Notes: generated by a model from the letters alone, not told the origin. Counted from the stretch's first letter, positions 32,131 through 59,190 are shown. The stretch is 64,000 bases of DNA from an uncultured Solibacteraceae bacterium (GCA_964636715.1 CAZWTH010000231.1:70-64069); one strand, 5' to 3'. Numbers and translations are program-made.

Positions 32131-34288
32131 CTGGCACCAGTTCCGCGAGCGCCGAGCGAAGCTGGTGAAGCTTGGGCGGCTTGTTCAGGACGCGGTCGAC
32201 GTTTTCGGGAATTTCCTCATCCTCCACCAGGCGCTGCCCCCAGCCGGTGAGAAGGATGACCGGCGTTTCCTGGCATGCCGCCTTCACGGCGTTGGCCACT
32301 TTCCGCCCGTCCACGTAAGGCATGCCGAGATCCGTAATGACGGCCGCAAAGCGCTCTTTGCGCGTCACGCTGGCTTTCAGAATGTCTATGCCCTCCTGCC
32401 CGCCTGTGGCCGTGGTGACCGCGTGCCCGTCTTCCTCGAGGATGGCCTGCAGCGAGCGAATGATCAGCGGATCGTCATCCACCAGCAGAATGTGAAGCCG
32501 GGACAGCGGGACATAGGGCCGCGCGATGGCGGATGTGCCCGCCGATATCGGCGACGGTTTGAAAACCAGCCCAACCGTCGTGCCTTTTCCGGGGGTACTG
32601 TCAATCGAAAGTTCAGCGTTCTGGCGCTGGGCGACGCCGTAGACCATGGCGAGACCAAGTCCGGTGCCGCGCTCTCCCTTGGTCGTGAAAAACGGCTCCA
32701 GACACCGGCGGCGCGTTTCCGGGTCCATACCGACACCGGAATCCTCTACCTCCACGTGAATACGGTCAGGCGATGACGAGCTTCGGGTACGCAGCACCAG
32801 CGGGCCGCCGGAAGGCATCGCATCCACCGCGTTGAAAACCAGATTCGTCAGAGCTTCACGAATTTCGCTTTCGATACCGGGCGCCGGCGGGAGATTCGCC
32901 TCCAGCTCGGTACGCATGCGGATCACGATGCCGCGCTGAAGCGGGAGATCGCTCCAGTGGGAACGGGTCAGGTCCATCACCTGGGTCACCAGAGCGTTGA
33001 GGTCTACCGGGGAGAGCACCAGTTGCGGCTCGCGCTTCCGGCAGAACTCACGCATGCGCCCGACGGTGTGGGTGACGTCGCCGATGGCCCGCTGCGTCGT
33101 TTCCAGGTAGGATCGGGTCCGCGGGCTCAGATTCGGTTCGCGTTCGAGCAGCGATTCCGTATAAAGAGCCACGGGCGAAAGCGCGTTGTTAATGTCGTGC
33201 GCGATGCCGCTCGCCATTTGTCCCAGCACGCGCAGGCGTTCCTGCTCCATGACGGCCTGCTGGGTGCGGCGAAGATCCTCATAAGCCTGTTGCAGCGCGG
33301 TATACATCTGCGATTGGTGGGCGGCCACGGCCACGTGTTCGCTGAGTTGGCGAAGAAACTCGCAGTCGCCGCTGCTGAAGGCTTCGGGTTGCTTTCGGGC
33401 GGCCACCAGGATCCCGAAGATCTTGCTCTCCGATCGCAACGGGGCTGCGACGACGCAGGCGAGCCCGCCCTGCGCCAGGCGCCGCGGAAACGGCAGGTCC
33501 ATTTCGCGGATATCGGGCTCGTAGACCAGTTGTCCGTTGATGCACCGCACAAGGCCGTTCTGATCCACGGGAATCCGCGATTGCTCCGTCAGCGCAAGAT
33601 CGAGCGCCAGGCTGTAGCTCCGCACTCCCACACAGGTGACCGTCAGCATTTCCGCCTCCGGGTCGTAGAGGCACACACAGCCGAAATCGATCGGCATGCT
33701 GTCTTCCAGCGTCCGGATCACCACCTGGAAAATGCTGCTGAGATCCTGACGTTCTCCGATCGCGCGGGTGATGTGGTCGAGCAGACTCATCCGCCCGAGC
33801 TGCTTCTGGAGTTTTTCCTCGGAATCTTTGCGCCGCAGCACCTCGGCCCATAATTCTTCAACCGCATGCGCGAGCTCTTCCCGGCTGCCCTGGGCGCTCT
33901 CGCCGAGCGCCGCATTCGCATCGGTGAGGGAATCGTTCGCGTCGGCAAGAACGTCCCGGGCGCGGCGCTGCATGTTGCCCACCCAGCTGATTGCCAGAGA
34001 GACCAGCAGAAATACGCCCAGCCGCGTGTAATCCGCCAGAGTCAGCGTCAGGCCATGTCCGCCGGCCAGCGGAAGCCCCACCATCGTGATCAGACAGCCA
34101 ATCACCCCCGGCCAGACGCCGCCGAACCAGGCGGACGCGAACACCGCGATCAGGTAAAAGAACGGATACGGAAAATCGAAGCCCTTTGGCAGCGCGCTCA
34201 TGACCGCGAATTGCGTCGCCAGCGCGGCGGCGATAGCGCCGAATGGCATGGAATAGCGAATGAATTTCGATAGTCTCGGTTGCGGCAT
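32117..34288 (-). CDS. Hybrid sensor histidine kinase (membrane DUF4118-like + GAF + HisKA + HATPase + receiver)
   Basis: ATG at 34288 ([13 protein letters not shown]...), 2 nt after the receptor stop. TM region, GAF, H-box [22 protein letters not shown] and receiver HILLVDDD ... [11 protein letters not shown]. The upstream extension in the ORF track (to 34942) overlaps the receptor gene and is rejected. Confidence 0.8.
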
Positions 34289-34290
34289 GA

Positions 34291-37200
34291 TCAGAATTCG
34301 AAGCGCGCTCCCAACTGGATCTGGCGCGCGGGAGCGGAACTGGTAATCGCCCCCAATGCGGGTGAATCGATCGAGGCTTGCGGAAGCCCGAAGTTGGTAT
34401 GGTTCAAAGCGTTGAAAAACTCGCCCCGCAGTTGCAGCCGGCGCTTCGCTGCGTCCGGCGCGAGCGCGAACGAACGCGCAACGCCCAGATCGAGATTGAC
34501 GCTGCCGGGCCCGCGCAGAATATCGCGGCCGGCGTTGCCCCACGCCTGCGGCGATGGAATCGCGAATGCCCGCGTATCGAACCACTTCGCAATCGACCGC
34601 TGGGCTTCTGGCAGGGCCCCGCTCGCCAGCCGATTCGGACGGCAATTGTTGCCTTCCGCATTCACATCGGCGCAATTCATCAGGACGCTGAACGGAGGCC
34701 CGGTTTCGGCGGTCAGGATGCCGCTCAACTGCCACCCCGCGGTCACGGCGCGCAGCGGGCGCCATCCGGTATGGCGAAACGGAATCTCCCAGACCGCATT
34801 CGCCACCAGAACCTCGGAGCGGTCGAAGCTCGAAAGCCCCCGGTCCAGTGCGGGATGCAGCGGATCCTGCGGATACTGCCCGCCGGACGCCACGTTGTCG
34901 GTCCCGTTGCTCTGATCGTCCAGCGACTTCGACCAGGTCCATGAGCCAAGCATGTGGAACCCGTGCGTGAAGCGGCGCTCATAGCGGAGCTCGAGGCCGT
35001 GATAAATCGACTGCGCGGTATTCGAAAGCTCCCGGACTTCAGCGACCGCGGAGCCGTAGGGGCGGCGCGCCGCGGGAGCCGTTGCGCCCGGCTGCGCCGC
35101 GTTGATATTCGACGCCATCAGCAGGCGGTTGCCGGAGGCGCCCACGTACGAAATCGAAACCAGCGACGTCTTGCTCAGCGCCCGCTGAATTTCCAGACTC
35201 CACGTTCCGGAGAACGGATTGCGGCCATCGGGAACCAGGTACCGCTGATTGCCCGAAGGGGCCGTGACAGAAGGAGAAGCGAGCGGCGGCGGCCCCCCGC
35301 TGAGCCGCACCGTGGGGGAGGTAAACGGAAAAATCGTGGTATTGCCGACGTAGTAAAAAGGCGCGTTAAATTCGTTGGAGTTGAGAATGCCCGCGCCGCC
35401 ATAAGGGTCGGTGTAGCTGAGGCCGAAGCCCGCCCGCACCACGGTGCTTGCCGCGTTCCCCGGCGACCACGCCAGCCCGATCCGCGGCGCGACATCGCCG
35501 AAGTCCGTGCGTACCAGCCGTTCGTCCGCATCCTTCCCCGCGATTCGAATCGTGCCGGACGCCGGATCGAAATTCGAAAGCCGGTTATGCATCTCGCGCG
35601 GATACGGCATCACGTCGTAGCGAAGCCCCAGGTTGACCGTCAGCCGCGGCGTGAGCCGGATGTCATCCTGCGCGAAAAGACCGTATCGCCAGGAAAAAAG
35701 TCCGGCCATGCCAGGCGAGAACTGATCCTGCAGGATCTGATACGGAGCTCCGGTCAGAAAACTCGCATAGGCATTGCCGCCCGGCGTCCCCGTGAGCGTA
35801 CTCGTTGTGAGATTCAGGAACGTGTAGAACCCGCGGCCATAGACGAGATATCCCGTGCTGCCGAGGCCGCGCTGATAGTCGATGCCCGCCCGGAATACGT
35901 GCCGCCCGCGCGCCCATGTGATCTTTTCCGTCAGATTCTCGTCCGTCGTCGCCAGCGAGAGGGGCGTCAGCAGGCTGTCTCCCACATCGAAAAGCCCTGC
36001 CACCGAGAGATTCGCGAGCCCCGAAGTCTGCGGACTGGTGTTGATGCCGGGAATCCGGAATTGCGCCGAAAGGTTCTGGCCGTAATCCTCCTGCGTCAGA
36101 AACGTCGTCTGCCGGTTGATTCCGATACGCAACTCATGAAAGAGCGAAGGCGAGAACTGATAGATATTTCCAAGCGCCACATTCTGCAGACGCGCCCGCG
36201 TGATTCCTGCGCCCAGCAGCGACCCGCCGAGAGGCGGCCCGAACAACGAGGGCACATTGGCATCCGTGTTCTGAAAGGAATACCGCACAAAGACCGAATT
36301 CGCCTGGGTGAACTGATGGTCAATGCGCGTATCGAACGACTGAACCGTGGAGGTGCTGACCCGCGTCACCGCATAGTTGTTGAAGGCCAGCGGTTGACCC
36401 GGCCCGCTGAACTGATTGGGAAGCGGCAACGCCTTGCTGATCGCCGCCGCCGCCGGATCGATCATGCTGGGCGGAATCACGTTCCCGGGAAAGGGGGAAC
36501 GCGCCGGAAATGCGCTCAAGGGATCGTAGATGGGCGCGGTCTGCGCTGAAAAATCGCCGCCCCGCTGCCCCTCTGTTGGCAGACTGGTGACCATCGGAGC
36601 CGAATTGTGGACCGGCGTCGCCTGGTAATCGGCGAAAAACAGAGTCCGGCCCCGCCGCAGCGGCCCGCCCAGCGAACCTCCGAACTGGTTGTAACGCAGC
36701 GGGTTTCGCGCCTGCCCGGTGGCGTTCGAAAAGAAATCGGCTGCGTCCAGCCGGTCGTTGCGCACGAATTCGAACAGCGATCCATGCCAGTCGTTTGTCC
36801 CCGATTTCGATTGCAGATTGATGACGGCGCCCGCCACATCCCCAAATTCCGCCGAATAGGCGCCCGATTGCACGGAAAACTCCTGCACCGCCTCGATCGG
36901 GATATTGAAACTGTTTCCCCGGCCCTGCGCCGAGGAGGTTACCGAAATCCCATCCGCCAGAAAGAGGTTGCCCTTGGTGCGCTGCCCGTAGACATTGACC
37001 GGATGCGGCGAACCGCTCTCGCCGGGCGCGCCGGGGTTCACGCCCCCGCTCAGCAGAATCAATTGCTGCCAGGCCCGGCCGTTCAGGGGCATCTCCGCTA
37101 CCTGCTTCGCGCCGATCACCTGCGAAAGTTCCGCGCTCTCCACTCCCAGCATCTGCCCGGCCGCGGCCTCTACCTGCATCGATTCGCTCTGTTCCCCCAC

Positions 37201-37704: not shown

Positions 37705-39729
37705 ATGTCCGATAATCCTCTTCTTTCCATTGAATTTGAGGTCCCTTTCGACCAGGTGCGCCCCGAGCACGTCGTTCCGGGAATCCGGCAGCTTCTCGCG
37801 GATTCTCAGGCGCGCATTGACGCCATCGCGGCGGACGAATCGGAGAGAACCTTCGCCAACACTATGCTGGCGCTCGAACAGGCGACCGAGCCCCTCGGCT
37901 ACGCCATGGGTATTGTGCGCCATCTGGAAGCAGTGGCTACATCGCCCGCCCTGCGCGCCGCCTGGAACGAAGTCGAACCAGCAACCAGCGAATTCTTCTC
38001 CCGCATTCCTCTCCACGAAGGCCTCTGGAAGCAACTGCGCCGTTACGCCGAAACGAACGAAGCCAAATCGCTCACCGGGACGAAGAAGCGCTTCCTGACC
38101 AAGACGCTCGATTCCTTCCGCCGCAGCGGCGCGGAGCTGGACGCGGCCGGCAAGAACCGCCTCGCCGAAATCGACGTGGAATTGGCGAAATGCACGACAA
38201 AATTCGCCGAAAATGTTTTGGATTCCACCAACTCATTTGAGCTGATTATCACGGACGAGTCGAAGCTCGAAGGCCTTCCCCCCAGCGCCCTCGCGGCGGC
38301 GCGCCAGAGCGCGGAGTCGAAAGGTCAGGCCGGCTGGAGGTTCACCCTCCAGGCGCCCAGCTATATCGCGGCTATCACTTATCTGGCGGATGCCGGCATC
38401 CGCGAACAGCTTTATCGCGCCCACATCGCGCGGGCCACGGAAGGCGAGCGCGACAATCGCCCCCTGATCGGCCGGGCTCTCGAACTACGTCGCGCGAAAG
38501 CTACCCTGCTGGGTTTCGGCGACTTCGCCGATTTTGTCATCTACGACCGCATGGCCCACACCGGCGCGCGCGCCCAGGAATTCCTCGGCGATCTCGAGGC
38601 CCGCACCCAGCCCGCCTTCGAACGCGAGAACGCCGCGCTCGAAGCTTTCGCCGGCCGCCGTCTGGAGCCCTGGGATATCGGTTACTACGCCGAGCTCCAG
38701 CGTCGCAAACTCTACGATTTCGACGAAGAGCAATTGCGCCCCTACTTCCCCGCCAAACGCGTGGTGAGCGGGATGTTCGGGATCGTCGAAAAGCTTTACG
38801 GCATCCAGGTGAAACGGCGCGAGGGCGTGCCGGTGTGGCATCCCGACGTCCGCTATTACGAAGTGCGCGACGCCGGCGGTCTCCTGCTTGGCGCCTTTTA
38901 CGCCGACTGGTTCCCGCGCGAAACCAAGCGCGATGGCGCCTGGATGGACGGGTTCATCACCGGCGTGGATGCGCCGGATCGCTTCGAGCCGCACGTTGGG
39001 TGCGTTTGCGGGAATCTGACCCCGCCCCTCGGCGACAAGCCGGCTCTGCTCACGCACCGCGAAGTCGAAACGATTTTCCATGAGTTCGGGCACCTGCTGC
39101 ATCACGTGCTGAGCCGCGTGGAAGTGAAGAGTCTGGCGGGCACGTCCGTCGCCTGGGATTTCGTCGAACTGCCGAGCCAGATCATGGAGAACTGGTGCTG
39201 GGAGCGCGAAGCGCTCGATATGTTCGCGCGGCACTACCTCACGGACGATCCTATTCCCGAAGACCTGTTCCGCAAGATGGTGGCGGCGCGAACGTACCGG
39301 AGCGCCAACGGTCAGATGCGGCAGCTCGGCTTCGGCGTGGTCGATCTCAAACTGCACCGCGAATACGATCCGGCGCGCGATGGCGACGTGTGCCGCTATG
39401 CGCGCAATATTCTTCAGGAATTCAACCCGGCCGAACTCCCGCGGGACTACTCCATGATCGCGGCGTTTACTCATCTCTTCGCGAGCCCGGTGGGATACGG
39501 CGCGGGCTACTACTCTTACAAGTGGGCCGAGGTCCTCGACGCCGACGCCTTCTCGCGCTTCCGAGTGGAGGGCATCTTCAGCCGCGAAGCGGGCGGCGCT
39601 TTCCGGGAGACGATTCTTTCGAAGGGCGACAGCGACGATCCGGCCGAACTCTACCGCCGCTTCATGGGCCGCGATCCGGATCCGAACGCGCTGCTGGTGC
39701 GCTCCGGTCTGCTGCCGGCCGCATCCTGA
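37705..39729 (+). CDS. M3-family zinc oligopeptidase (oligopeptidase A / Dcp-like)
   Basis: HEFGHLLHH zinc motif, length and overall M3 architecture. Confidence 0.85.
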   Translation: MSDNPLLSIEFEVPFDQVRPEHVVPGIRQLLADSQARIDAIAADESERTFANTMLALEQATEPLGYAMGIVRHLEAVATSPALRAAWNEVEPATSEFFSRIPLHEGLWKQLRRYAETNEAKSLTGTKKRFLTKTLDSFRRSGAELDAAGKNRLAEIDVELAKCTTKFAENVLDSTNSFELIITDESKLEGLPPSALAAARQSAESKGQAGWRFTLQAPSYIAAITYLADAGIREQLYRAHIARATEGERDNRPLIGRALELRRAKATLLGFGDFADFVIYDRMAHTGARAQEFLGDLEARTQPAFERENAALEAFAGRRLEPWDIGYYAELQRRKLYDFDEEQLRPYFPAKRVVSGMFGIVEKLYGIQVKRREGVPVWHPDVRYYEVRDAGGLLLGAFYADWFPRETKRDGAWMDGFITGVDAPDRFEPHVGCVCGNLTPPLGDKPALLTHREVETIFHEFGHLLHHVLSRVEVKSLAGTSVAWDFVELPSQIMENWCWEREALDMFARHYLTDDPIPEDLFRKMVAARTYRSANGQMRQLGFGVVDLKLHREYDPARDGDVCRYARNILQEFNPAELPRDYSMIAAFTHLFASPVGYGAGYYSYKWAEVLDADAFSRFRVEGIFSREAGGAFRETILSKGDSDDPAELYRRFMGRDPDPNALLVRSGLLPAAS

Positions 39730-39752
39730 TTCATTGCTATCCTGAGGGTGCG

Positions 39753-40352
39753 ATGTTTCTGAAAATCCTGTCGCACCCGGTTTTCGCCAATCTCAACTTC
39801 CACATGCCGATGGTGGTGGATCTTTCGCATCCGCTGATCATGCTGACGGGCGATAACGGGTCGGGCAAGTCCACGCTTCTGCATTCGATTCAATATGCGC
39901 TGAAAGGCGAGCGAGCCGAAGGCTATATCTACCGGCTCGACCGCGGCGACGTCAAGCCCGGCAGCGTATTTCTCTTCGACGCCGAGCAGCATAATCCGCG
40001 CATGCAGCTCGAAGTGTTTCGCGACCAGCCGGAGATGCTGGAATTTCTGCAGCTGGCCAGTCACGGCCAGGTGATGCTCGCCATGTTCCGGACGAATTTT
40101 CCGTCGCTCGAATCGGGCACTACTCTGCTGCTCGATGAGCCGGAGATGGCGCTCTCGGTTTCCAACCAGCGCCGCATTCTCAAAATGCTGCACGAGCTGG
40201 TGGATCAGCGCGGCTTCCGTATCATCTGCGCGACGCATTCGCCGGTCCTGATCGAAGATCCGTCCACCTACGTGATCAACCTCGATAACCACATCAACCG
40301 CAACGTCCCGCTCGAATCGTTCGGGGTCGAAGGGGCCAGCACCATTCAGTAG
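39753..40352 (+). CDS. Minimal ABC/SMC-type (AAA_21-like) ATPase, 199 aa
   Basis: ATG at 39753 after GAGGG. Walker A GDNGSGKST, signature-like ASHGQ, Walker B LLLDEPE and H-loop ATHSP. No extra domain. The ORF-track start at 39195 overlaps the peptidase gene and is rejected. Confidence 0.7.
   Translation: MFLKILSHPVFANLNFHMPMVVDLSHPLIMLTGDNGSGKSTLLHSIQYALKGERAEGYIYRLDRGDVKPGSVFLFDAEQHNPRMQLEVFRDQPEMLEFLQLASHGQVMLAMFRTNFPSLESGTTLLLDEPEMALSVSNQRRILKMLHELVDQRGFRIICATHSPVLIEDPSTYVINLDNHINRNVPLESFGVEGASTIQ
40271..40352 (+). repeat. Direct repeat copy 1 (the functional 3' end of the ATPase gene, including its stop)
   Basis: 82 nt, cgtgatcaacctcgataaccacatcaaccg...accattcagtag, identical to 42017-42098 except G at 40334 versus C at 42080. 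Confidence 0.9.
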
Positions 40353-40377
40353 TGAGGACTGGTACGATACAAGTTCC

Positions 40378-41031
40378 ATGAGTCTGGAGGCAGAGGTGGC
40401 GGCGGTGAATGCAGCGGGATTCGAGATAGCCAACTCAAATGCCGGGAAGGCCGTGGATGTATATTTCTCGGCCGATGTCGAGACGGACGGCCCAATTCCG
40501 GGACCATACTCCATTCTCTCTTTTGCTCTTGTCTACGCAGGCTCGTTTGACGGTGAACAATTTGTGAAGCCAGATCGCGAACCCATTGTCTTTTATCGGG
40601 AGCTGAGACCGATATCAGCAAATTTTGAGCCGGAAGCGCTGCGAGTCAACGGCCTCGACAGGGAAAGATTACTGCGGGAGGGTGTTTCGCCGGAAGATGC
40701 GATGACCGAGGCCGCTCACTGGATCAAGCAGAGAGCTGGGGCTGGCCGTCCCGTACTAGTCGCCTATCCACTCAGTTTCGATTGGTCGTGGCTGTATTGG
40801 TATTTCGTGAAGTTTTCCGCAAGCGGGTCTCCGTTTGACTACTCGCGGTGCTTCGATATTAAAACCGCAGTGGCGGTCAAGGCGCGAATACCGATTTCCA
40901 ATGCGGGCAGGTCCCGGTTGATCCCCTCACTACAGAGCTATCGAGTCCACACTCACCACGCCGTTGAAGATGCAATTGAGCAGGCGGAAATTTTCGCAAA
41001 CGTTTTCGAATGGGGAGGAATCGGTGGGTGA
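40378..41031 (+). CDS. DEDDh-family 3'-5' exonuclease (DnaQ/RNase T fold)
   Basis: Exo I ADVETDG, Exo II LVAYPLSFDWSWL and Exo III HHAVEDAIEQAEIF (H-x4-D). Possible alternative GTG start at 40396, preceded by GGAGG at 40386-40390. Confidence 0.75.
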   Translation: MSLEAEVAAVNAAGFEIANSNAGKAVDVYFSADVETDGPIPGPYSILSFALVYAGSFDGEQFVKPDREPIVFYRELRPISANFEPEALRVNGLDRERLLREGVSPEDAMTEAAHWIKQRAGAGRPVLVAYPLSFDWSWLYWYFVKFSASGSPFDYSRCFDIKTAVAVKARIPISNAGRSRLIPSLQSYRVHTHHAVEDAIEQAEIFANVFEWGGIGG

Positions 41032-42013
41032 ACTTTTGGCCGCCCGCCGCAATGAGACCAATCTTCGCCTTGCGGAAATGCAGAAACGGCTCGCCGCAGC
41101 GGAAAAGCTTGTTAGCGGAAAGGCCTGCGTTTATGCGACGGGCTCATTTGGCCGCGGGGAAGCGAGCAGGTTCAGCGACCTGGATCTATTCATTGTTGGT
41201 GGTTCCGAGCAGATTGGTGGCAGACGCCTGCTTTCGAGGCTCGACGAAATTTGCGTGAAGGCCGACCTTGTCGAAGTCACTCGGGACCTGAAGATTCCGG
41301 AGTTCTCGGGAGACGGCGAGTACCTGGAGCACTACACTGTTGGGGAACTTATTAGAGCACTGGGGACGCCGGAGGATGATTCGAGCAATGCCTTCACCGC
41401 TCGCCTTCTTCTGCTGCTCGAGAGCCAGCCGCTGGTGGGGGCAGAAAGCTATAGGGCACTGACATCCGAGGTCATCGCCGCCTACTGGCGCGATTACGAG
41501 AATCACAGGAACGAGTTCATGCCGGCTTACCTGGCGAACGACATCCTGCGCCTGTGGCGTACTTTCTGTGTCAATTACGAGGCGCGCACATCCTCCGATC
41601 CGCCCCCTAAAAAGGCAAAGAGAAAACTGAAGAACTATAAGCTCAAACACAGCAGATTGTTGACCTGTTATTCAGCGCTGCTGTATTTGCTCGCGGTCTA
41701 CTCCAGAAACAAAACCGTTCACCCGGAAGATGCGGTCGCAATGATTCAAATGACTCCAACGCAACGGCTGGAATGGCTGATGACGCAGGAATGTTTGTCC
41801 GAAGCGAGGGAGACGGTGGCGGCGGTCATCGAGCGATACGAGCAATTCCTGCGGCAGACGGAAATGCCGGAAGAAGATCTCGTGAAACAATTCATGGAAA
41901 GGGATACCGCCAGAAAATTCATGGCGTCCGCCCCTGCATTTGGAGATTTGGTCTACTCCCTGTTATCAAGGCTCGGTGGTAACGGACGCTTCTTCCGTCT
42001 TCTTGTTGTCTAG
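41024..42013 (+). CDS. Pol-beta-superfamily nucleotidyltransferase with helical C-terminal domain (GlnD/GlnE-like signature)
   Basis: GTG at 41024 preceded by GGGGAGGA (41012-41019), overlapping the exonuclease stop by 8 nt. Active-site pattern TGSFGRGEASRFSDLDLFIV (G-S-x-G-R-G-E ... D-x-D). About 250 aa of all-helical tail. The ORF-track ATG at 40964 is also possible. Confidence 0.7.
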   Translation: MGELLAARRNETNLRLAEMQKRLAAAEKLVSGKACVYATGSFGRGEASRFSDLDLFIVGGSEQIGGRRLLSRLDEICVKADLVEVTRDLKIPEFSGDGEYLEHYTVGELIRALGTPEDDSSNAFTARLLLLLESQPLVGAESYRALTSEVIAAYWRDYENHRNEFMPAYLANDILRLWRTFCVNYEARTSSDPPPKKAKRKLKNYKLKHSRLLTCYSALLYLLAVYSRNKTVHPEDAVAMIQMTPTQRLEWLMTQECLSEARETVAAVIERYEQFLRQTEMPEEDLVKQFMERDTARKFMASAPAFGDLVYSLLSRLGGNGRFFRLLVV

Positions 42014-42016
42014 AGC

Positions 42017-42098
42017 CGTGATCAACCTCGATAACCACATCAACCGCAACGTCCCGCTCGAATCGTTCGGGGTCGAAGGCGCCAGCACCATTCAGTAG
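42017..42098 (+). pseudogene. Direct repeat copy 2: orphan duplicate of the last 27 codons + stop of the ATPase gene
   Basis: 81/82 identity to 40271-40352. Starts 3 nt after the NTase stop. No upstream coding continuation in that frame. Confidence 0.85.
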
Positions 42099-42152
42099 CC
42101 ACTCCCTTGCGCGCTGCCTTCCCTGGCGATAGCATGACTAGCGAGGGCTTTC

Positions 42153-44132
42153 TTGCGTTTTCGCCATCTTTTCCTCCTTTTCGCCCTGGCCTGGACCGCC
42201 TCCGCGCAGGATCGCCCATTCGGTTCCGGCCTTTACCAGGTCATGCAGAACGCCGGATGCCCGCTCTGCCATAACCCGAACGGCGTCGCCTCCGCCACCC
42301 GAATCCACTTCCCTGAAGCCGATGCCTCGCCCGAAAAGATCGAAGCCTTCGGCCGATCCCTCGTCGTTGTCGTCGATCGCAACAACCCCGAGGCATCTCT
42401 GTTACTGAACAAACCCACCGCCCGGATTCCACACACCGGCGGCGAACGAATTAAACCGGGTAGTCCCGAAGAGGCCGTCCTCAAAGCCTGGGTCAACCGC
42501 CTCGCCCGCCTCTCCGGCCCCGACCTCGCAGCCGCCCTGAAGTATCGCGAAATGGAAAACGCGGGCAGTGGCGAAAGCCGTCCGCGCGTGGATCTCCGCC
42601 GGCTCACGCACAGCCAGTACAACCACACCGTTCGCGACCTCCTTGGCGACACGACCCAGCCATCCAATCAGTTCCCGCCCGAAGACTTCGTCAACGGCTT
42701 CCGCAATCAGGGACAGGCCGAGACCATTTCTCCGCTCCTGATGGAAAACTACAGCACCGCCGCCGAGCGCCTGGCGAAAAGCGCCTTTCGCGGCGGCGAC
42801 GCCAGTCTGATCCCCTGCAAACCTTCCGCCGCCTGCCGCACCCGCTTCGTGAAGGATTTTGGCCTGAAGGCGTTCCGGCGTCCGCTCGAACCGACCGAGC
42901 AGAAACGGTACGAAACCCTGATGATGCGCGAAAAGGATTTCACCGCCGGCGCTCAGCTCGTCATCGAAGCGATGCTGCAATCCCCCGACTTCCTCTTTCG
43001 TTTCGAAGAAACGTCATACCCGGCCTGGAAACCGTACGCGGCCGCGAGCCGGCTTTCTTATGCCCTCTGGGACAGCATGCCGGACGCCGAGCTGTTCGCC
43101 GCCGCTGCTCGCGGCGATCTGAACACCCGGCAGGGCGTCGATCGACAGGCCCGCCGCCTGCTCGACGACCCGCGCGCTCATGAAGCCCTCAACGAATTCG
43201 TCAGCCAGTGGCTGCGGTTCGATCGCGTTCTCACCGCGTCGAAAGACCGCCGCAAGTACCCCGATTTCACTCTCGAAACCGCCGAATCGATGACCGAAGA
43301 AGCACGAGTCTTCGTAGGCGATCTCGTCTGGAACGATCGCAACTTCATGGATCTGTTCAGCGCAGGCTACACGTTCGCGAACGCGGACCTCGCCGCCATC
43401 TACGGCATCAAACCGCCGGCGAAAGAGTTCGGGAAGGTCAGCTTTCCCGCGGATTCCGAACGGGCCGGCGTTCTCGGCCAAACTCTTTTCCTCGCTCTCA
43501 CCGCGAAGCCTGAAGACTCCTCGCCCACCGCGCGCGGTCTCTTCGTGCGCGAACAATTCCTCTGCCAGCACGTGCCGCCTCCGCCACCCGGCGTGAATAC
43601 CAATCTGCCGCCGGTGACCGAAGCGAAGCCGCAAACCAATCGCGACCGCATGACTGAGCACGCCAGCAATCCGATGTGCGCCTCCTGTCACAAGCTGATG
43701 GACCCCATCGGCTTCGGTCTCGAAAAGTTCGATTCCGTCGGCGCGCGTCGCGATAAATACACGCTGACCTTCGCAACCGGACGCGGCGGCGGAAACGGCA
43801 ATGGCAACAATCGCCCCGCCACAAAGAAGATCGACCTGGATCTCAACACCGCCGGAACCGTAGCCGGCCTGCCCGATTCATCATTCTCTTCGCCCGCTCA
43901 GCTCGGCGCCATTCTTGCGAAGAGCGCGCAGTGCCAGGAATGCGTTGTGAAACAATATTTCCGGTACACCACGGGACGCATGGAAGTTCCGGCCGACCGT
44001 CCTGTCATCACCCAGGCGCTGGACGATTTCCGGAAATCGCAATATCACTTTAAAGATCTGATGCTGTCGCTGGTTCGGTTGCGGGAATTTCCCGGGTCAG
44101 GAGAGATCGCCGATGTCGGAAATCATCACTAA
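42153..44132 (+). CDS. PSCyt / DUF1592-DUF1588-DUF1585 multidomain protein (paralog 2)
   Basis: TTG start with GAGGG upstream. Signal peptide [27 protein letters not shown] and [19 protein letters not shown]. Confidence 0.8.
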
Positions 44133-45441
44133 GCGCGTCCGGCTGTCGCGCCGTTCCGTCCTGAAAGGAATCACCGCCGCCGGCGCTCGCATCGCCATCG
44201 GACTGCCGCCGCTCGTTTCCATGTTCAATTCGGCGGGCACGGCCTACGCCGCCGAATCGAAGCCGATCGAGAACCGCTTCGTTCTCTGGTTCAACGGCAA
44301 CGGCATCCCGGAAGGCGCATGGATCCCGTCCGAAGAAGGCCCCGATTACCGGCTGACGCACTGCCTCGCCCCACTCGCCCAGCATCGCGACGATATCCAC
44401 GTGATCAGCGGCCTCGATAACGCCGCCGCCATGATTCCCGGGCCCGGCGTGGGCAATGGCCACCATAATTCCATGGCGGGGCTCATGACCTGCACGCAGT
44501 TCAGCGGGCGCGGCGCGAGCGGGCCTTCGATCGATCAGGCAATCGCGGCGCGCATTGGAGGCGACTCGCGTTTCCGCTCGCTCCAGATCGGCGTTTCGCA
44601 GGAATCCTTCGGCGAAAGCATCCAGCGCAACATGAGCTGGGCCGGATACGAGAAGGCGCTGCCGCCGGAGATGATCCCGCACCGACTCTTCGACCGCCTG
44701 TTCGGCGCCCGCGAAGAAGGGTGGGCCGACCGTAAACGCAGCATTCTCGATGCGATTCGCGAGGACGCGGACGATCTGAAGAAGAAGCTTCCCGCCGATG
44801 ATCGCCTTCGCGTGGACGAGCACCTGGCCGGTGTACGCGATATCGAGCATTCGATCGCGGCCCTGCCGCCCGAATATCGCCACGTCGATCCGCCGGATTT
44901 CGAAGGCGACCCCAAGGACTGGCCGCGCATCGCCCGCCTGCAGAGCGATCTTCTGGTTCAGGCGCTCGCCACGCACCAGACTCGCGTCGCGTCCTACATG
45001 CTCACGAAGTGCCAGGGTCTTTCGCGTTTCCCGTGGCTCGGTTACACGTCCGCACGGCATCACGATTACACCCACACCATGGGCAAGCTTGGAGCCGATG
45101 GCGTGGAAGGCCAGAAGGTGCTGCGCGACATCTGCAAGTGGCATGTCCAGGAGTTCTCATATCTCCTCGATCGTCTGAAAGCGGTTCCGGAAGGCGACGG
45201 CTCCGTTTTCGATCACACGCTGGTTGCATTCGTTCACGAACACGCTGAGGCGGATCCGCATAAGAACACCGGCCTAGCCATGATTCTTGCGGGCGGCGTC
45301 CCGAAGCTTGCCAAGGGCACGCACACGCGCGTCACCGGCACCGTGGGCGATCTCTATCTGACGCTGACGGATGACGTCCTCAACGTAGGCCTCGGCAAAT
45401 TCCCGACCGCGACCCGAAGAGTGGCCACGGTGGTGGCGTGA
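44113..45441 (+). CDS. DUF1552 domain protein (paralog 2)
   Basis: [28 protein letters not shown] Tat-like N-terminus. Collinear similarity to 23036-24397. 20-nt overlap with the upstream gene. Confidence 0.8.
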
Positions 45442-47435
45442 TCACGCTCCGAAAATCCGCGCTCGCCGTGGCGCTGGTGGCTGTGGCTGCATTGCCGCTC
45501 GCCGCGTCGGAACACGACGTCGCCGAATGGGCGATTCGCAGTGGCGGCCGCGTGATTCTCGCGGGCAATCCCGCGCCAATCGATTCCGTTCTGTCGCTCC
45601 CCGCGGGAGACGTTCACCTCACCGGCATCGATCTCGCCGGAACCCTGATCACCCCGGATCAACTGGAAATGATCAGCGGACTCACCGGCCTCAAAGAGCT
45701 GTCGCTCCCCGGCCCGATCTGGAATCCGGCCTCCGGCAGTTCGCTCGACGCGAATGACAAGCTGAAATTCCTCGCGGGTCTCACCGGCCTCGAAAAGCTT
45801 TCGTTCAGCCTCCACTTCCTGACCAACATCAATATTCAGGACAAAGGCGTCGTCCTCCTGACCGGCCTCGACAACCTGCGTGAGCTCCGTTGCGCCCAGT
45901 GCCGCATCTCGAAGGCCAGCCTCGCGATCTTCCCGAAACTCGAATCGCTCGACCTGAGCCTCTCTTCTTTCAATGACAAGGGCATGCAGGGCCTCGCGAG
46001 CCTCCACGACTTGCGGCGTCTCAATCTGCGGGATACGCTCGTGACGGGCGATGGCCTGCAGAGCCTCAGCGAACTCACGAAGCTCGAAGAACTCGACCTC
46101 GCCGGCACGCACGTGACGGACGCGGGCCTGGCGAATCTTCGCAATCTGAAATCGATGCGCGCTCTCAGCCTGCTCGGCTCCGAGGTGAGCGATGAATCGG
46201 CCGGCCTGCTGGCGGGGATGACCGAACTGCGCGAGCTCAATCTTTATCGCAGCCAGATCACCAATGCCGGCCTGGCGAAACTTGCCACGCTGAAAAATCT
46301 GGAAGCAATCGACCTCCGCTATTCGCGCGTCACCGCGTCGGGCGTGCAGGCTTTCCGCGCGGCGCTGCCGCAATGCAGAGTCGAATTTTCCGGCAATGAA
46401 CCTGTTTCGCAGAAGGGTCCCGCGCCGAAACCCAATGGAGCCGGCGATGCCGCGCTCGCCGCCTGGGTGCGAGCCGTCGGCGGCAAGGCCGTTTTGACGG
46501 ACGGCAAACTGCGTTCCGTCTCACTGCGCTCCACCGCGATCTCCGATGCCACACTGAAAAATCTCGCAACCGCGGGAAATGTGGAGAGCGTGGACCTTGA
46601 AGGCACGGAAATCGGCGATCTGGGCCTCGCGGCGTTGAAGAATCTGACCAGCCTGCGCGAGCTCAATCTGAATCAAACAACGGTATCGGATAACGGTCTC
46701 GCTTCACTCACCGGTCTCATCAAACTGACGACCCTCAAACTGGGCGGCACTCTCGTACGTGGACAAGGCCTGGTTCGATTGAAGGATCTCGCATCGCTCC
46801 GCGAGCTCGATCTCACGTCCGCGCCGATCGACGACGAAGGATTGGCCAACATCGGCGAAATCAAAGGCCTCGAACGCCTTTATCTCGGCGACACGAACGT
46901 TACGAACGCAGGTCTCAGCCATCTCTCCGCGCTGACTTCGCTGAGGACGCTCGAACTCGCCGGGACCGACACGAGCGATGAAGGTCTGGAAAGCCTCGCC
47001 GCCCTCACACGCCTGCGCGTCCTCAATCTCGATTACACGAAGGTGACGGACAAGGGCGTCGCGCATCTGGCGGGCCTGAAAAATCTGGAGCGCCTCCAAC
47101 TCGTCCGCACGCGAACCGGCGATCCCTCTGCCGAAGTCTTCGCGGGATTGACAAATCTCGCTTTTCTCGACATGAGTTACACGTCGTTCTCGGATTCCGG
47201 CCTCAAACAGATTCAGGGCCTCCCCAGACTTCGCGAGCTCCGCCTCGATTCGGCGGGAATTACGGACGCCGCGGCTGAAACTCTGAAATTGATGACCGGC
47301 CTCCAGACGCTGAATCTTTATCACACGCCGCTGACCGCAACGGGGTACGAGCAGATCAAAGCCGCGCTGCCCTCGTGCCGCATCATCTTCGACGCCGCCT
47401 CTTCGCCAGACGCCCGCAAGACCACCAAATTATGA
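45438..47435 (+). CDS. Secreted leucine-rich-repeat protein (two LRR blocks)
   Basis: GTGA overlap with the DUF1552 stop. Signal peptide. About 24-aa repeats LxxLxxLxLxxTxVTDxGLxxL. Each block ends in an AALPxCRhxF-type cap. Confidence 0.8.
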
Positions 47436-48358
47436 AGCGCGCCATCCACATCGCCGCTCTTCTCTCGCTCACGGCCTTCTGGCTCACGGGCGCCGACGAT
47501 ACCTGGATCGCGAAAGCTGGCGGCGCCGTCACGCGCGACGCATCCGGCCACATCACGCGCGTCGACCTCCGCTCCAGTTGGGTAACCGATACCGATCTCG
47601 CCCAGCTCGCCGCCATCCCCACTCTCCAGTCGCTCGACTTGTCGCTGACCCGCATCACCGATCACGGGATGCAGCAACTGAAGACCGCCCCGAATATCAC
47701 CGACTTCAATCTCTACTACGCCGAACTCGTGACGGATGAAGGCGTCGCTGCCATCAAAGACTGGAAACATCTGAAGCGCATCAATCTGCGCGGCACGCAC
47801 ATCACGGACACGACGCTGGAGCATCTCGCCGGGATGGAAACGCTGGAATCGATCGACGTGGGCTTCGCGCAAATCACGGACGTTGGTCCGGATCGCCTCG
47901 CCGGGCTTCCTCACCTGAAGGAACTCACGCTCGGCGGAAATAAACTCACCGATGTCGGTCTGCTGCCGCTTCGCCATCTCCAGACGCTCACGTACCTCGA
48001 TCTCAGCGGCGTGCAGCGCGCGGATTCGGGGCTCTGGTCCGTCAACCTCGGCGACCGCGGCATCGAGACAATTGCAGCGCTCCACGAGCTGCATGAACTG
48101 CGACTGACAGGCCTGCCGGTCACCGCGGCTTCGATTGAAAAGCTGAAGGGCCTGAGCAAGCTGGAGCGTATCGAGTTGCAGGGATGCAAACGAATCGCCG
48201 ATGACGCCGCGCCGGCGCTCGGAGCCTTGTCTGCCCTGCAGATCGCCGATCTGAAAAACACGGCGTTCACGGAAGCCGGCGCTCGCGCGCTCAAAGCCGC
48301 GAAGCCAGACACTCAGGTTCTTTACGGGCCCATTCCGTCGCTCGCCAGCGTACGATAG
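47432..48358 (+). CDS. Secreted leucine-rich-repeat protein
   Basis: ATGA overlap with the upstream LRR gene. Signal peptide [21 protein letters not shown]. Same LRR type. Confidence 0.8.
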
Positions 48359-48399
48359 CATATTTGTTCGGTTCCGGAACTATTTCGGGAGGAAATCAT

Positions 48400-49578
48400 A
48401 TGGGTCGATTCAATCGGCGTTCATTCATGAAAGCGGCGGGGCCGGCGAGCCTGATGCCGGCATTACCCCATTCGCTGTTTGCGCAGGTTGCCGCCGGGCG
48501 CGGACCGCGCATCATTGAGGAAGTCGTACCGCCTTCGCCGGAAGTGAAGCCGAAATACTCCATCAAATTCGCGGTCATCGGCATCGATCACAACCATATT
48601 CTCGGGATCACCGCCGCCATGCAACGCGGCGGAGGCCAACTGGTCTCCGTATTTTCGATGAATCCTCAATACCCGAAGACCATCGCGGATTTCAAAGCGC
48701 GTTTCGGCGACGTGAAAATCGCCCGCAGCGAGGATGAGATCCTGAACGATCCCGAAATCAAGCTGGTCTGCGCCGCGCCTATTCCCGATCAGCGGGCCGC
48801 GCTCGGCATTCGCGTCATGAAGCATGGCAAGGACTATCTGGTCGACAAGCCCGGCATCATCACGCTCGCGGAACTGGCCGAGGTTCGCAAGACGATCAAA
48901 GAAACGGGCCGCATCTACGGAATTCTTTTCTCCGAACGCCTCGAAGTGAGAGCCGCCGTGCAGGCCGGTGTGCTCGTCAAAGCCGGCGCTATCGGCAAAG
49001 TGGTTCAGACGATCAACATTGCCCCGCACCAGGTGAATGCGCCGTCTCGTCCCGACTGGTTCTGGGATCCCGCGCGCTACGGCGGCATCCTGTGCGACAT
49101 CGGTTCTCACCAGGTCGATCAGTTTCTCTATTACACGGGCTCAACGACCGCTGACGTGACGGCATCGCAGATCGCCAACGTCCACTATCCGAAATACCCG
49201 AAGTTCCAGGATTTCGGCGATGTGATGCTGCACGGCAATGGCGGCGCAGGCTATGTGCGCGTCGATTGGTTCACGCCCGATGGACTCGGCGTCTGGGGCG
49301 ACGGACGCCTCTTCATCCTCGGCACGGACGGCTACATCGAACTACGCAAGTATGCCGATATCGGCGGCCGCAAAGGCGGCAACCATCTGTTCCTCGTGGA
49401 CAATAAATCCCAGCGTTATGTCGATTGCACGAACGTGGTGCTGCCGTTCGGACCGCAGTTCGTGGGCGACATTGTCAATCGCACCCACGTGGCGCAGGAT
49501 CAGGTGGAGACGCTGCTCACGACCGAACTGGTACTGAAAGCGCAGCAGCAGGCGAAAGTTCTCAAGTTCACCACATAA
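48400..49578 (+). CDS. Gfo/Idh/MocA-family oxidoreductase (Tat signal)
   Basis: MGRFNRRSFMKAAGP twin-arginine leader. Rossmann N-terminus FAVIGIDHNHILG. Confidence 0.75.
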   Translation: MGRFNRRSFMKAAGPASLMPALPHSLFAQVAAGRGPRIIEEVVPPSPEVKPKYSIKFAVIGIDHNHILGITAAMQRGGGQLVSVFSMNPQYPKTIADFKARFGDVKIARSEDEILNDPEIKLVCAAPIPDQRAALGIRVMKHGKDYLVDKPGIITLAELAEVRKTIKETGRIYGILFSERLEVRAAVQAGVLVKAGAIGKVVQTINIAPHQVNAPSRPDWFWDPARYGGILCDIGSHQVDQFLYYTGSTTADVTASQIANVHYPKYPKFQDFGDVMLHGNGGAGYVRVDWFTPDGLGVWGDGRLFILGTDGYIELRKYADIGGRKGGNHLFLVDNKSQRYVDCTNVVLPFGPQFVGDIVNRTHVAQDQVETLLTTELVLKAQQQAKVLKFTT

Positions 49579-49589
49579 GGAACGCCGCG

Positions 49590-50945
49590 ATGAATACCAG
49601 ACGTACGTTCCTGAAGACTGGCGCAGCAGCCGCCGTTTTCCCCGCCATCGTGCCTTCGAGTGTGTTCGGCCAGAATGCGCCGAGCAATCGCATCAACGTG
49701 GGCGCGATCGGCGTGGGCCGTATCTCTCTCGCGCATGATCTGCCGGGTATCTGGCAGCACGATATCGCCCGCATCATGGCGGTTTGCGATCTCGATTCGA
49801 AGCGCGTGGAACTGGGCAAGCAGTTCATCAACTCGCATTACGCCGAAAAGAGCGGGAAGCCTTATGACGGCGTTACAGGCTACAGCAACCATCACGAACT
49901 GCTGGCCAATAAAGATATCGACGCCGTCGTTATCTCGACGCCCGACCATCAGCATGCCCTCTGCGCGGCGGCCGCCGTGCGCGCCGGCAAGGATGTCTAT
50001 CTTCAGAAACCGGCGTCACTCACTATTGCCGAAGGACGGTACCTGAGCGACGTCGTTCAGAAATCCGGCCGCATATTTCAGATCGGCTCGCAGCAACGCT
50101 CGCTGAGCCCCTGGAAGCAGTTTCATCGCACCTGCGAGCTCGTGCGCAACGGCCGCATCGGCCAGTTGAAGCATGTCGAGATCGGTCTGCCGGGCGATCC
50201 CAGCGGTCCCGAGGCGCCGCAGATGCCGGTACCGAAGAATCTGAACTACGATGCCTGGCTGGGCTCGACGCCGGACGTCTATTACACCGAAATCCGCGTG
50301 CATCCGCAGAGCGATTTCAGCCGCCCCGGCTGGCTGCGCTGCGAGCAATTCGGAGCCGGCATGATCACCGGTTGGGGCGCGCACCATGTGGATACCGCGC
50401 ACTGGGGCATGGACACCGAACACACCGGTCCGGTTGAAATCTGGGGCACGGCGGAATTTCCGAAGAGCGGCCTGTGGGATGTGCACGGCCCCTTCAAAAC
50501 CGAAGCCCGTTACGCGAACGGCGTCACGATGGCGATCTCCGGCGACTTTCCGAACGGCATCAAATTCTATGGCAGCGAAGGCTGGATCTTCGTCACGCGT
50601 GACGATACTGTCACCGAGTCCGACCCCGTCACCAAAGAAAAATTACCCCCGCTGATGGCGAGCAATCCGAAGATCCTGTCGAGCGTCATCGGGCCGAACG
50701 AGATCCATCTCTACGAAAGCCCGGAGCATCACCTGAACTGGCTGCAATGCATCAAAAGCCGCAAGCCGACGATCGCGCCGGTCGAAATCGCGCACCGCGC
50801 CTGCTCCACCTGCCTGCTGCATCACATTGCGATGAAGACGAAGCGGCATTTGAAGTGGGATCCGGCGAAGGAGCGTTTCATCGGCGACGATGCCGCGAAC
50901 GCCATGCTGAGCCGCCCGCAACGCGCTGCTTATAAGCTCGCTTAG
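49590..50945 (+). CDS. Gfo/Idh/MocA-family oxidoreductase (Tat signal)
   Basis: ATG at 49590 gives MNTRRTFLKTGAAAAVFP. INVGAIGVGRIS Rossmann motif and ISTPDHQHA. The ORF-track start at 49425 overlaps the upstream gene. Confidence 0.8.
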   Translation: MNTRRTFLKTGAAAAVFPAIVPSSVFGQNAPSNRINVGAIGVGRISLAHDLPGIWQHDIARIMAVCDLDSKRVELGKQFINSHYAEKSGKPYDGVTGYSNHHELLANKDIDAVVISTPDHQHALCAAAAVRAGKDVYLQKPASLTIAEGRYLSDVVQKSGRIFQIGSQQRSLSPWKQFHRTCELVRNGRIGQLKHVEIGLPGDPSGPEAPQMPVPKNLNYDAWLGSTPDVYYTEIRVHPQSDFSRPGWLRCEQFGAGMITGWGAHHVDTAHWGMDTEHTGPVEIWGTAEFPKSGLWDVHGPFKTEARYANGVTMAISGDFPNGIKFYGSEGWIFVTRDDTVTESDPVTKEKLPPLMASNPKILSSVIGPNEIHLYESPEHHLNWLQCIKSRKPTIAPVEIAHRACSTCLLHHIAMKTKRHLKWDPAKERFIGDDAANAMLSRPQRAAYKLA

Positions 50946-59167: not shown

Positions 59168-59190
59168 ATCTGTCGTTGAATCGCCCGGCG

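Follow-up and report, generated by a model that had tools for sequence, protein, structure and literature searches.

How did two genes come to lie between two nearly identical copies of the 3' end of a third? We address this question in a 64,000-nucleotide (nt) stretch of DNA from an uncultured Solibacteraceae bacterium (GCA_964636715.1, CAZWTH010000231.1:70-64069), referred to in its whole length as the window. Between an ATPase gene and a DUF1592 gene, it carries a cassette of two genes, encoding an exonuclease and a nucleotidyltransferase (NTase), flanked by an 82-nt direct repeat of the ATPase gene end. An earlier description made from the sequence alone (the original prediction) attributed this arrangement to integration, either by a Campbell-type single crossover with a circular molecule or through site-specific att duplication. 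We favor, with moderate confidence, the following answer: the exonuclease-NTase pair is a horizontally moving cassette without a recombinase, and it entered at the 3' end of the ATPase gene through a single crossover of the Campbell type. The argument turns on the following features.

39753 to 40352, plus strand: the target gene, encoding a 199-amino-acid (aa) ABC/AAA_21-type ATPase (Walker A GDNGSGKST, Walker B LLLDEPE; Pfam AAA_21 and AAA_15)
40271 to 40352, plus strand: repeat copy 1 (proximal, attL-like), the working last 27 codons and stop codon of the ATPase gene
40353 to 40377, plus strand: the 25-nt cassette leader, TGAGGACTGGTACGATACAAGTTCC, homologous to the leader ACTGCTACGATACAGGGACG of a second occupied site (L003, below)
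40378 to 41031, plus strand: gene for a 217-aa Cap18-family DEDDh 3'-5' exonuclease (PADLOC PDLC00753, PDB 7T2S, Pfam Rv2179c-like)
41024 to 42013, plus strand: gene for a Pol-beta-fold NTase, 329 aa from GTG 41024 (Pfam NTP_transf_2, PADLOC PDC-M70A)
42014 to 42016, plus strand: the 3-nt trailer AGC, from the NTase stop codon to repeat copy 2
42017 to 42098, plus strand: repeat copy 2 (distal, attR-like), a displaced, non-functional ATPase 3' end, followed directly by CCACTCCC

A repeat search recovered the 82-nt pair at 99% identity (81/82) and a spacing of 1,746 nt; it is the sole long near-identical repeat of the whole window, and its copies match each other by BLAST within the local flanks with an E value of 1e-41. 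The right boundary of the repeat coincides with the ATPase stop codon, TAG. On the left, the repeat starts at the third base of a TAC codon, and the base before it differs between the copies (A versus C). The lone mismatch is a synonymous third-position change in a glycine codon, GGG in copy 1 and GGC in copy 2 and nearly all relatives. The ATPase gene is intact at 199 aa, with copy 1 forming its 3' end; a longer mechanical open reading frame (ORF) at 39195-40352 was discarded, since it overlaps the upstream M3 peptidase gene and the homologs are nearly all 199 aa long. Leader, exonuclease gene, NTase gene, and trailer account for the 1,664 bp between the copies. The cassette also stands out in composition: GC content is 0.546 in the exonuclease gene and 0.551 in the NTase gene, against 0.633 in the M3 peptidase gene, 0.617 in the DUF1592 gene, and 0.612 for the window mean, and GC at third codon positions (GC3) is 0.58 and 0.65, against 0.73-0.78 in the surroundings. 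The exonuclease gene has the lowest GC3 among the credible genes of the window. The original prediction was thus accurate on the extent and identity of the repeat, on the identity of copy 1, on the content of the insert, and on its AT richness and A/T-ending codons. It was also right that integrase, transposase, and terminal inverted repeats are absent, both from the insert and within about 10 kb of it, and that an 82-nt duplication, with no inverted repeats at the insert ends, is too long for a transposase target. The leader holds a TACGAT -10-like box; no convincing consensus promoter or terminator was found at the cassette boundaries, and Rfam gave no known RNA in the repeat region.

Such a structure could be an assembly artifact, in which an empty-site chromosome and a free 1,746-bp circle, or a mixture of strains, were threaded together. 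A unitig assembled independently by Logan from run SRR12170510 equals window positions 40304-42046 at 100% identity. This is exactly what a k=31 graph gives for a real repeat, so both cassette-repeat junctions exist in the reads of a second assembler. In such a graph the integrated form is topologically the same as a circle plus an empty site, and the unitig stops exactly at the collapsed repeat, both of which an artifact would allow. However, the repeat is just 82 nt long and identical over 62 nt, a length that ordinary reads span, and its copies differ by one base. Moreover, the same architecture was assembled independently in L003, from another species and project, and an analogous one is found at a transfer RNA gene in L157 (see below). 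We therefore regard an artifact as very improbable.

What was at this site before the cassette? The ATPase gene is a conserved core gene of the Bryobacteraceae/Bryobacterales, as judged from its near-constant length, its spread, and its usual place after an M3 oligopeptidase gene. Its best 120 homologs, 82-98% identical, are nearly all 199 aa long (range, 199-219) and bear the names Bryobacteraceae, Bryobacterales, Solibacteraceae, and Terriglobia, and 316 matching stretches in GTDB species-representative genomes encode a relative. We place the host in the Bryobacteraceae. Despite its generic AAA_21/ABC matches, it lies outside any defense operon. A three-gene defense system of ATPase, exonuclease, and NTase, suggested by matches of the ATPase to AAA_21, Gabija-like, and PARIS-like models, is ruled out: the ATPase gene is vertically conserved, most relatives have it but not the cassette, and it does not adjoin the pair in any of 80 further, metagenomic cassette loci (0/80). 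In the window, the wider neighborhood of the target gene is as follows.

37705 to 39729, plus strand: M3 oligopeptidase gene (Pfam Peptidase_M3, 1.3e-133), the conserved upstream neighbor of the ATPase gene in most related loci
42099 to 48360, plus strand: a lineage-specific block of DUF1592, DUF1552, and two LRR genes (Pfam)
48364 to 50945, plus strand: two GFO/IDH/MocA oxidoreductase genes, the ancestral downstream neighbors of the ATPase gene (Pfam)

Empty sites are found among relatives. In five closely related loci (L004, L005, L006, L007, and L008), the ATPase gene is followed directly by the two oxidoreductase genes, with neither a cassette nor a second ATPase end, and the same arrangement, M3 peptidase and ATPase genes and then oxidoreductase genes, occurs in 24 contigs carrying the protein P0361. 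Oxidoreductase genes also lie directly downstream of the ATPase gene in L168-L175. The 6.3-kb block of four same-strand genes that begins with DUF1592 (one of its LRR genes encodes a 665-aa protein, and the second lies at about 47375-48358) is missing from L003-L008 and present in L001, a Logan contig with 97% ATPase identity that lacks the cassette. The block has no flanking repeat, and no third copy of the ATPase end was found at its right edge. Since the oxidoreductase genes adjoin the ATPase gene in L003-L008 and L168-L175, the DUF1592 block is a second, separate, and older lineage-specific insertion at the same junction. In L001, a gene of about 550 nt (1178-1740) stands between the ATPase stop codon and DUF1592; it encodes a small hypothetical protein with an N-terminal hydrophobic segment and is not accompanied by a repeat. 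The ATPase 3' flank is thus an insertion hotspot, occupied according to lineage by the exonuclease-NTase pair, the small gene of L001, or the DUF1592 block.

These comparisons correct the original prediction in one respect. It had noted that, in copy 2, the ATPase stop codon lies 54 nt before the DUF1592 start (TTG 42153) and had taken this spacing for an ancestral operon junction. The distance holds, but the junction is not ancestral, because the ancestral neighbors are oxidoreductase genes. Similarly, relatives without the cassette or a second ATPase end do exist, as proposed, but the exact arrangement of ATPase followed by DUF1592, the empty form of the window's own context, was not found among them. 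The grounds that it gave for abandoning an insertion, namely, occupancy in all relatives, uniform composition, or a spurious second repeat, are not borne out: there are empty sites, a deviant composition, and a unitig that matches both junctions.

Two further observations concern this junction. Compared with L001, the window has a 1-nt insertion in DUF1592 (within 42134-42160) just after the ATG used in L001; it throws the L001-type ATG out of frame, leaving TTG 42153 as the start or a frameshift at the 5' end. In addition, a -10-like motif, TACGATA(C/G), occurs at 40363-40370 and 48313-48320 of the window, at about 7610 in L005, and at 2448 and 4250 in L003. It lies at a similar distance past the ATPase stop codon in empty sites and in the cassette leader, and it is also present upstream of an oxidoreductase gene; GATAGCAT is found upstream of DUF1592. 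The likeness of the leader to the native ATPase-oxidoreductase intergenic region amounts to the 8-mer TACGATAC, which lies about equally far from the stop codon in both. It may reflect homology, convergence, or a common promoter element, as the motif recurs upstream of other genes here.

The cassette occupies the same address in a second species. L003 (DASZVV010000358), the GTDB representative of a species other than that of the window, has the gene order M3 peptidase, ATPase, exonuclease, NTase, ATPase-end repeat, and oxidoreductase. Its repeat spans 70 nt (2367-2436 and 4126-4195) at 94% identity (4/70 differ), and a Logan unitig from a sibling run (L166) contains the left junction as well. 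Among 82 related ATPase loci, L003 alone has a second copy of the ATPase end, and no other cargo lies between such repeats. The left junction is common to the window and L003: the ATPase stop codon is followed by a homologous leader, ACTG(G/C)TACGATACA. The right junctions differ, with 3 nt in the window and 33 unrelated nt in L003 between the NTase stop codon and the repeat, and the L003 repeat begins 13 nt later. Overall, the two alleles have leaders of 20-25 nt, trailers of 3-33 nt, and the same minimal two-gene content. A third occupied site is probable in P0242, where an exonuclease gene (89% protein identity) follows a partial upstream gene after a gap of 25 nt, on a contig that ends at the NTase end.

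The two cassettes have diverged more than their surroundings. Between the window and L003, synonymous divergence (dS) is 0.99 for the M3 peptidase, 0.63 for the ATPase, and 1.19 for the oxidoreductase gene, while the cassette genes give a dS of 2.3-2.6, which is in the saturated range, and a nonsynonymous divergence (dN) of 0.11-0.12. Amino acid identity is 80-82% in the cassette and 94-98% in the flanks, and third-position identity is 0.475 and 0.60-0.70, respectively. The nearest relative of the window by its flank genes is L005 (dS, 0.40-0.61), and the L003 ATPase is closest to that of L004; both of these sites are empty. Judging from these gene comparisons, the two cassette-bearing genomes are not each other's closest relatives.

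The repeats themselves carry a record of their history. Both window copies have the window-specific synonymous alleles A25 and C39, and both L003 copies have the L003 alleles A51 and G63 and a TAA stop codon. The copies differ from each other at 1/82 sites (1.2%) in the window and 4/70 (5.7%) in L003. A non-coding copy diverging at the rate of the flanks (dS of at least 0.63) should differ at far more sites, so the duplications either postdate the split of the two lineages by a wide margin or have been kept alike by recombination. In addition, the four L003 differences all fall in the left 21 nt of the distal copy, all at third codon positions of the ATPase (the chance expectation is (1/3)^4 = 0.012), and 3/4 are synonymous. 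Related alleles are known from other lineages: the AAT variants together in L012, L023, and L066, and GTA in L006. Given the third-position pattern and the presence of these alleles in other lineages, the left part of the L003 distal arm appears to have had a coding history in another ATPase gene, in line with an arm that came with the element and a crossover to its right; decay in place predicts otherwise.

These data bear on the main rival explanation, in which a single ancient insertion and duplication in the ancestor of the window and L003 was inherited vertically, homogenized by gene conversion, and lost repeatedly (in L001, L004, L005, and others). The site and the left junction with its leader are identical in kind in the two genomes, as this scenario predicts; an 82-nt repeat makes loss easy, with a clean empty site as the outcome, and the number of events is similar (at least two losses versus two gains). 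The 49 identical nt of the L003 repeat, beside 21 nt with four differences, could likewise be a partial conversion tract. Yet the right junctions differ, both in the spacer and in the start of the repeat; the cassette is more divergent at third positions than its flanks; in-place decay of a non-coding copy does not predict four third-position differences; and the repeats would have to outlast a dS of at least 0.63 without decay or deletion. An ancient insertion, therefore, fits the junctions, the cassette divergence, and the third-position pattern less well than the Campbell-type model, and we consider it unlikely.

Is the pair confined to this address? In 80 metagenome loci, the exonuclease gene lies immediately upstream of the NTase gene wherever the contig reaches, in about 60-70 unrelated flanking contexts. 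The neighbors are often of defense or mobile type and include DUF3732, DUF3644, a PD-(D/E)XK nuclease, a trypsin-like protease, and, in L085/L091, a phage-type integrase. In L085 (7367-11235, minus strand), about 370 nt separate the NTase gene from the Phage_integrase-family gene downstream, after which come three more same-strand ORFs of 229, 320, and 351 aa. This series, of which the first ORF was checked against Pfam, may be an element of the recombinase-in-trio type. Carriage of the pair by phages or plasmids was considered and set aside: viral contigs (IMG/VR) gave one match, and plasmids (PLSDB) gave no close relative, only two weak partial matches of about 30%.

One of these contexts reproduces the architecture at a different kind of target. 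In L157, the pair lies between two copies of a tRNA-Ser(UGA) gene, which form a 113-nt repeat of 95.6% identity. The right tRNA copy (2668-2757) is intact (53.7 bits), and the left copy (566-655) has broken acceptor-stem pairs (44.6 bits); the differences of the degenerate copy are at its 5' end, beside the cassette. Such a polarity is classical for elements integrated into tRNA genes. The orientation of the cassette relative to its target is opposite at the tRNA and at the ATPase sites. Overall, long flanking repeats accompany 3/63 pair loci and 0/364 control segments (P = 0.003), a count that includes two ascertained loci.

Further repeats turned up in this survey. A 26-nt repeat flanking the pair in L153 (5110-5135 and 6989-7014) was rejected as a fourth case, as it is a hairpin resembling repetitive extragenic palindromic (REP) sequences and occurs also in L114 and L126. 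In these related loci, the hairpin, GGCACGAC-TGAA-GTCGTGCC, stands right after stop codons and is REP-like or terminator-like rather than an insertion scar. Separately, L164, an unrelated 4.2-Mb contig that also carries an exonuclease-NTase pair, contains a 271-nt direct repeat of 94% identity (5704-5974 and 6755-7025). It duplicates the 3' end of a PEMT-family gene, starts 1 nt past the stop codon, and brackets a single RibD_C gene; the architecture is that of the window with other cargo, and the differences are spread evenly over the codon positions (7:4:5).

The pair could, in principle, mobilize itself, its enzymes processing DNA ends and thereby making long target duplications. It is bracketed by duplications of 70-113 nt at two kinds of target with no other mobility gene present, but 60/63 loci have no long flanking repeat, the bracketed loci share no terminal sequences, and the orientation of the pair differs between the ATPase and tRNA targets. 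Furthermore, the left junction common to the window and L003 points to repeat and leader having been inherited as one unit, and the members of the Cap18 clade that have been studied cleave 2'-5' dinucleotides, not DNA (bioRxiv 10.1101/2025.03.04.641389). We give self-mobilization hardly any credence.

How, then, would the cassette have entered? An intact target gene, an insert, and a displaced 3' end form the signature of a single reciprocal crossover with a circle carrying the target 3' end. According to the model that we favor, the incoming DNA would carry its own copy of the last ~80 nt of the ATPase gene, stop codon included, with the leader and the cassette genes behind it. A crossover within the shared segment would rebuild an intact ATPase gene, ending in copy 1, and the resident 3' end would be pushed downstream as a dead fragment, copy 2. 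Recombination between the repeats would excise the cassette precisely, yielding an empty site and a 1,746-bp circle whose junction would read NTase end, AGC, repeat, and TGAGGACTGG. A cycle of excision and integration would spread the cassette among the Bryobacteraceae that share the conserved ATPase end. The starting points of this model are direct observations, namely, the repeat, its tight boundaries, the empty sites, the second occupied site, the deviant composition, the lack of mobility genes, and repeats that are either young or homogenized; from them we infer a circular intermediate, a crossover enzyme, and ongoing mobility. An integrated, excisable cassette fits the empty sites, the diverged allele at the same address in L003 with its shared left and different right junction, the coding-type differences in the L003 distal arm, and the tRNA-Ser case.

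The enzyme would have to come from elsewhere. A Pfam domain scan found no recombinase in the insert or anywhere from 30 to 56 kb of the window; since the cassette has none, the crossover would be made by host RecA, acting on 70-110 nt of homology, or by a tyrosine integrase supplied in trans. General recombination is favored by the variation in repeat length (70, 82, and 113 nt), by the use of two kinds of target, and by the reversed orientation at the tRNA gene; the preference for a tRNA gene and for the 3' end of a conserved gene points to integrases. Insertion as such, as put forward in the original prediction, is upheld by the empty sites, the composition, and L003, and the choice between a RecA crossover and site-specific integration is not settled by these data. 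Two familiar types of mobile DNA were rejected. An insertion sequence, transposon, or miniature inverted-repeat transposable element would have inverted repeats at its ends and a short target site duplication (2-14 bp), unlike the 82 nt seen here. An integron cassette would have an attC site, for which the 3 nt between the NTase stop codon and the repeat leave no room, and no integrase lies within about 10 kb.

A described class of elements suggests a further explanation: the cassette may descend from a larger island or prophage that had its own integrase, integrated site-specifically into the ATPase 3' end, and shrank by internal deletion to two cargo genes, which would make it a strict cis-mobilizable element (CIME) (PMC5704250). 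A duplicated gene or tRNA 3' end is the hallmark of tyrosine-integrase elements, seen here at the tRNA-Ser of L157, and a Phage_integrase gene follows the NTase gene in L085/L091. This origin has difficulty, however, with two diverged alleles in two species that agree in their minimal content and retain no other DNA of an element. Neither the insert nor its vicinity contains an integrase, a pseudogene, or an element remnant, and no larger island was seen at the ATPase end among the matches listed from 82 related ATPase loci. We judge a remnant improbable.

Several points weigh against the Campbell-type model that we prefer. For the window lineage, the assembled sequence showed neither a circle or excision product nor an empty site as a polymorphism, and either form, integrated or excised, agrees with the Logan unitig graph. 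Gene conversion between old repeats could also keep the copies alike. The excess divergence of the cassette has to be read with care, as a dS above 2 is saturated and lower codon bias inflates it. Without the two ascertained loci, long flanking repeats are found in 1/61 pair loci and 0/364 controls (P = 0.14), with no significant enrichment, and we claim no special association of the pair with such repeats. The repeat in the window shows no foreign sign: its distal copy carries the window's own alleles, so the donor of the ATPase fragment would belong to the same lineage, which fits a cycle within a population. Finally, the model leaves the origin of the first unit of ATPase fragment plus cassette unexplained.

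What does the cassette encode? The exonuclease retains the DEDDh motifs DVE, SFDW, and HHAVEDA and matches the PADLOC model PDLC00753 ("Effector / Exonuclease") at 2.5e-35 and PDB 7T2S at E = 1.3e-19; the latter structure has been identified as E. coli Cap18 (PMC12345164). It has about 4,300 database relatives, and exact-protein look-ups of the window exonuclease and ATPase returned no record. Cap18 is an accessory gene of the cyclic oligonucleotide-based antiphage signaling system (CBASS), in which a catalytic mutant left protection against phage lambda unchanged (PMC9122588). More recently, the Cap18 clade was reported to cleave the 2'-5'-linked linear intermediate of cGAS-like enzymes and thereby to set an activation threshold (bioRxiv 10.1101/2025.03.04.641389).

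The NTase gene most likely starts at GTG 41024, overlapping the exonuclease stop codon by 8 nt (GTGGGTGA). Its product has the Pol-beta signature GS...DxD and about 2,500 database relatives; in Pfam, it matches NTP_transf_2, Polbeta, and DUF294 only. Besides the window's own entry (P0121, 100%), the best homolog in the protein database is only 69% identical, compared with 82-98% for homologs of the ATPase; the L003 NTase, from a separate search, is 80% identical. The protein also matches the PADLOC candidate PDC-M70A at 1.1e-23. PDC-M70 is a candidate system with two components, A and B; the exonuclease matches no PDC-M70 model, and a literature search on PDC-M70 found nothing. A confident AlphaFold2 model (predicted local distance difference test score, 88.8) gave as best folds DrrA, GlnE, aminoglycoside NTases (ANT), MNT antitoxins, and Hailong HalB, all distant (template modeling score of at most 0.44).

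A CBASS identity for the pair was rejected. The NTase is not a cGAS/DncV-like CD-NTase, as it matches no cyclase model in PADLOC and its folds are not cGAS-like. Effector, HORMA/TRIP13, and E1/E2 genes are missing, and the pair stands alone next to the core ATPase and DUF1592 genes; the Cap18-type accessory exonuclease is the sole CBASS trait present. The 8-nt gene overlap and the fixed exonuclease-then-NTase order in all loci fit a toxin-antitoxin arrangement. From gene order, overlap, and the relationship to Cap18, the pair looks like a coupled writer and eraser of a nucleotide product. It may serve signaling or defense under threshold control, or it may combine a toxic NTase with an enzyme as antidote. 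Synthesis or attachment of nucleotides would fall to the NTase, and hydrolysis of the product or of an intermediate to the Cap18-like exonuclease.

Elsewhere in the window, a diverged 42-nt unit (61-79% identity) occurs seven times at 57900-61280, inside two large minus-strand ORFs (57482-59620 and 60056-62614); the copies resemble protein-level repeats of an unknown family. ARAGORN placed an 88-nt tRNA-Pro at 33365-33452, within a histidine kinase ORF (32117-34942); it falls below the Rfam gathering threshold and is probably a false positive.

The locus offers a testable example of how accessory, probably defense-type genes may move in uncultured soil Acidobacteriota without a mobility gene of their own, the address of the cassette being the conserved tail of a core gene. 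If the cycle of excision and integration is real and driven by RecA, surveys for integrases and transposases miss such cassettes. The locus also flags an always-paired gene module with thousands of homologs whose function is undescribed. A more general proposal would be that small cassettes carrying just the 3' end of a conserved host gene form a distinct, under-recognized class of "homology-addressed" mobile DNA, which would cycle by host recombination alone and spread within the family that shares the address gene; the exonuclease-NTase pair would be one cargo and might itself be a new stand-alone immune or toxin-antitoxin module. We put this forward as speculation, and quite unlikely as it stands.

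How does the cassette compare with known systems? The prophage e14 and phage 21 reportedly integrate into the 3' end of E. coli icd and replace that end. There, as here, the element supplies a substitute 3' end, the target stays intact, the old end remains as a fragment beyond the insert, and the copies differ mainly at synonymous sites. Unlike the cassette, with its 1.66 kb, two cargo genes, and no recombinase, those elements measure 15-40 kb and have their own integrase and excisionase. In insertion-duplication mutagenesis, a laboratory procedure, circular non-replicating DNA enters by a single crossover. The product is again a homologous segment, an insert, and a homologous segment, reversible through the duplicates; to our knowledge, Campbell-type insertion is not an established natural class for moving small cassettes. 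The minimal mobile elements of Neisseria are variable cassettes between conserved genes that are exchanged by homologous recombination. The ATPase 3' flank resembles them as a hotspot whose occupants differ by lineage, but their exchange proceeds by double crossover in both flanks and leaves no duplication.

Islands targeted to tRNA genes have a match in L157, where the pair is bordered on one side by an intact tRNA-Ser and on the other by a degenerate duplicate, in the classical polarity; in the window, by contrast, the target is protein coding and there is no integrase. CIMEs keep flanking att sites but no longer have genes for integration and transfer (Guedon et al., 2017, PMC5704250). The cassette is like them in having no recombinase, so that mobilization would need a supply in trans. 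Yet CIMEs are decayed integrative and conjugative or integrative and mobilizable elements, of which they usually keep remnants, whereas the cassette has no such remnants, recurs as a minimal unit in two species, and has no known cognate integrase. As for the cargo, the Cap18/Exo of CBASS (PDB 7T2S) is a sequence relative of the exonuclease and is also paired with a nucleotidyltransferase; unlike that enzyme, the partner in the window is not cGAS/DncV-like. Overall, duplication of a gene 3' end by an integrating element is classical, and recombinase-less att-flanked elements are already described as CIMEs (PMC5704250). What is unusual here is the minimal size, the lack of any element remnant, and the recurrence in different species of one two-gene unit, each time at the same address in a protein-coding gene, with a cargo pairing, a Cap18-clade exonuclease and a non-cGAS NTase, that is undescribed but very common.

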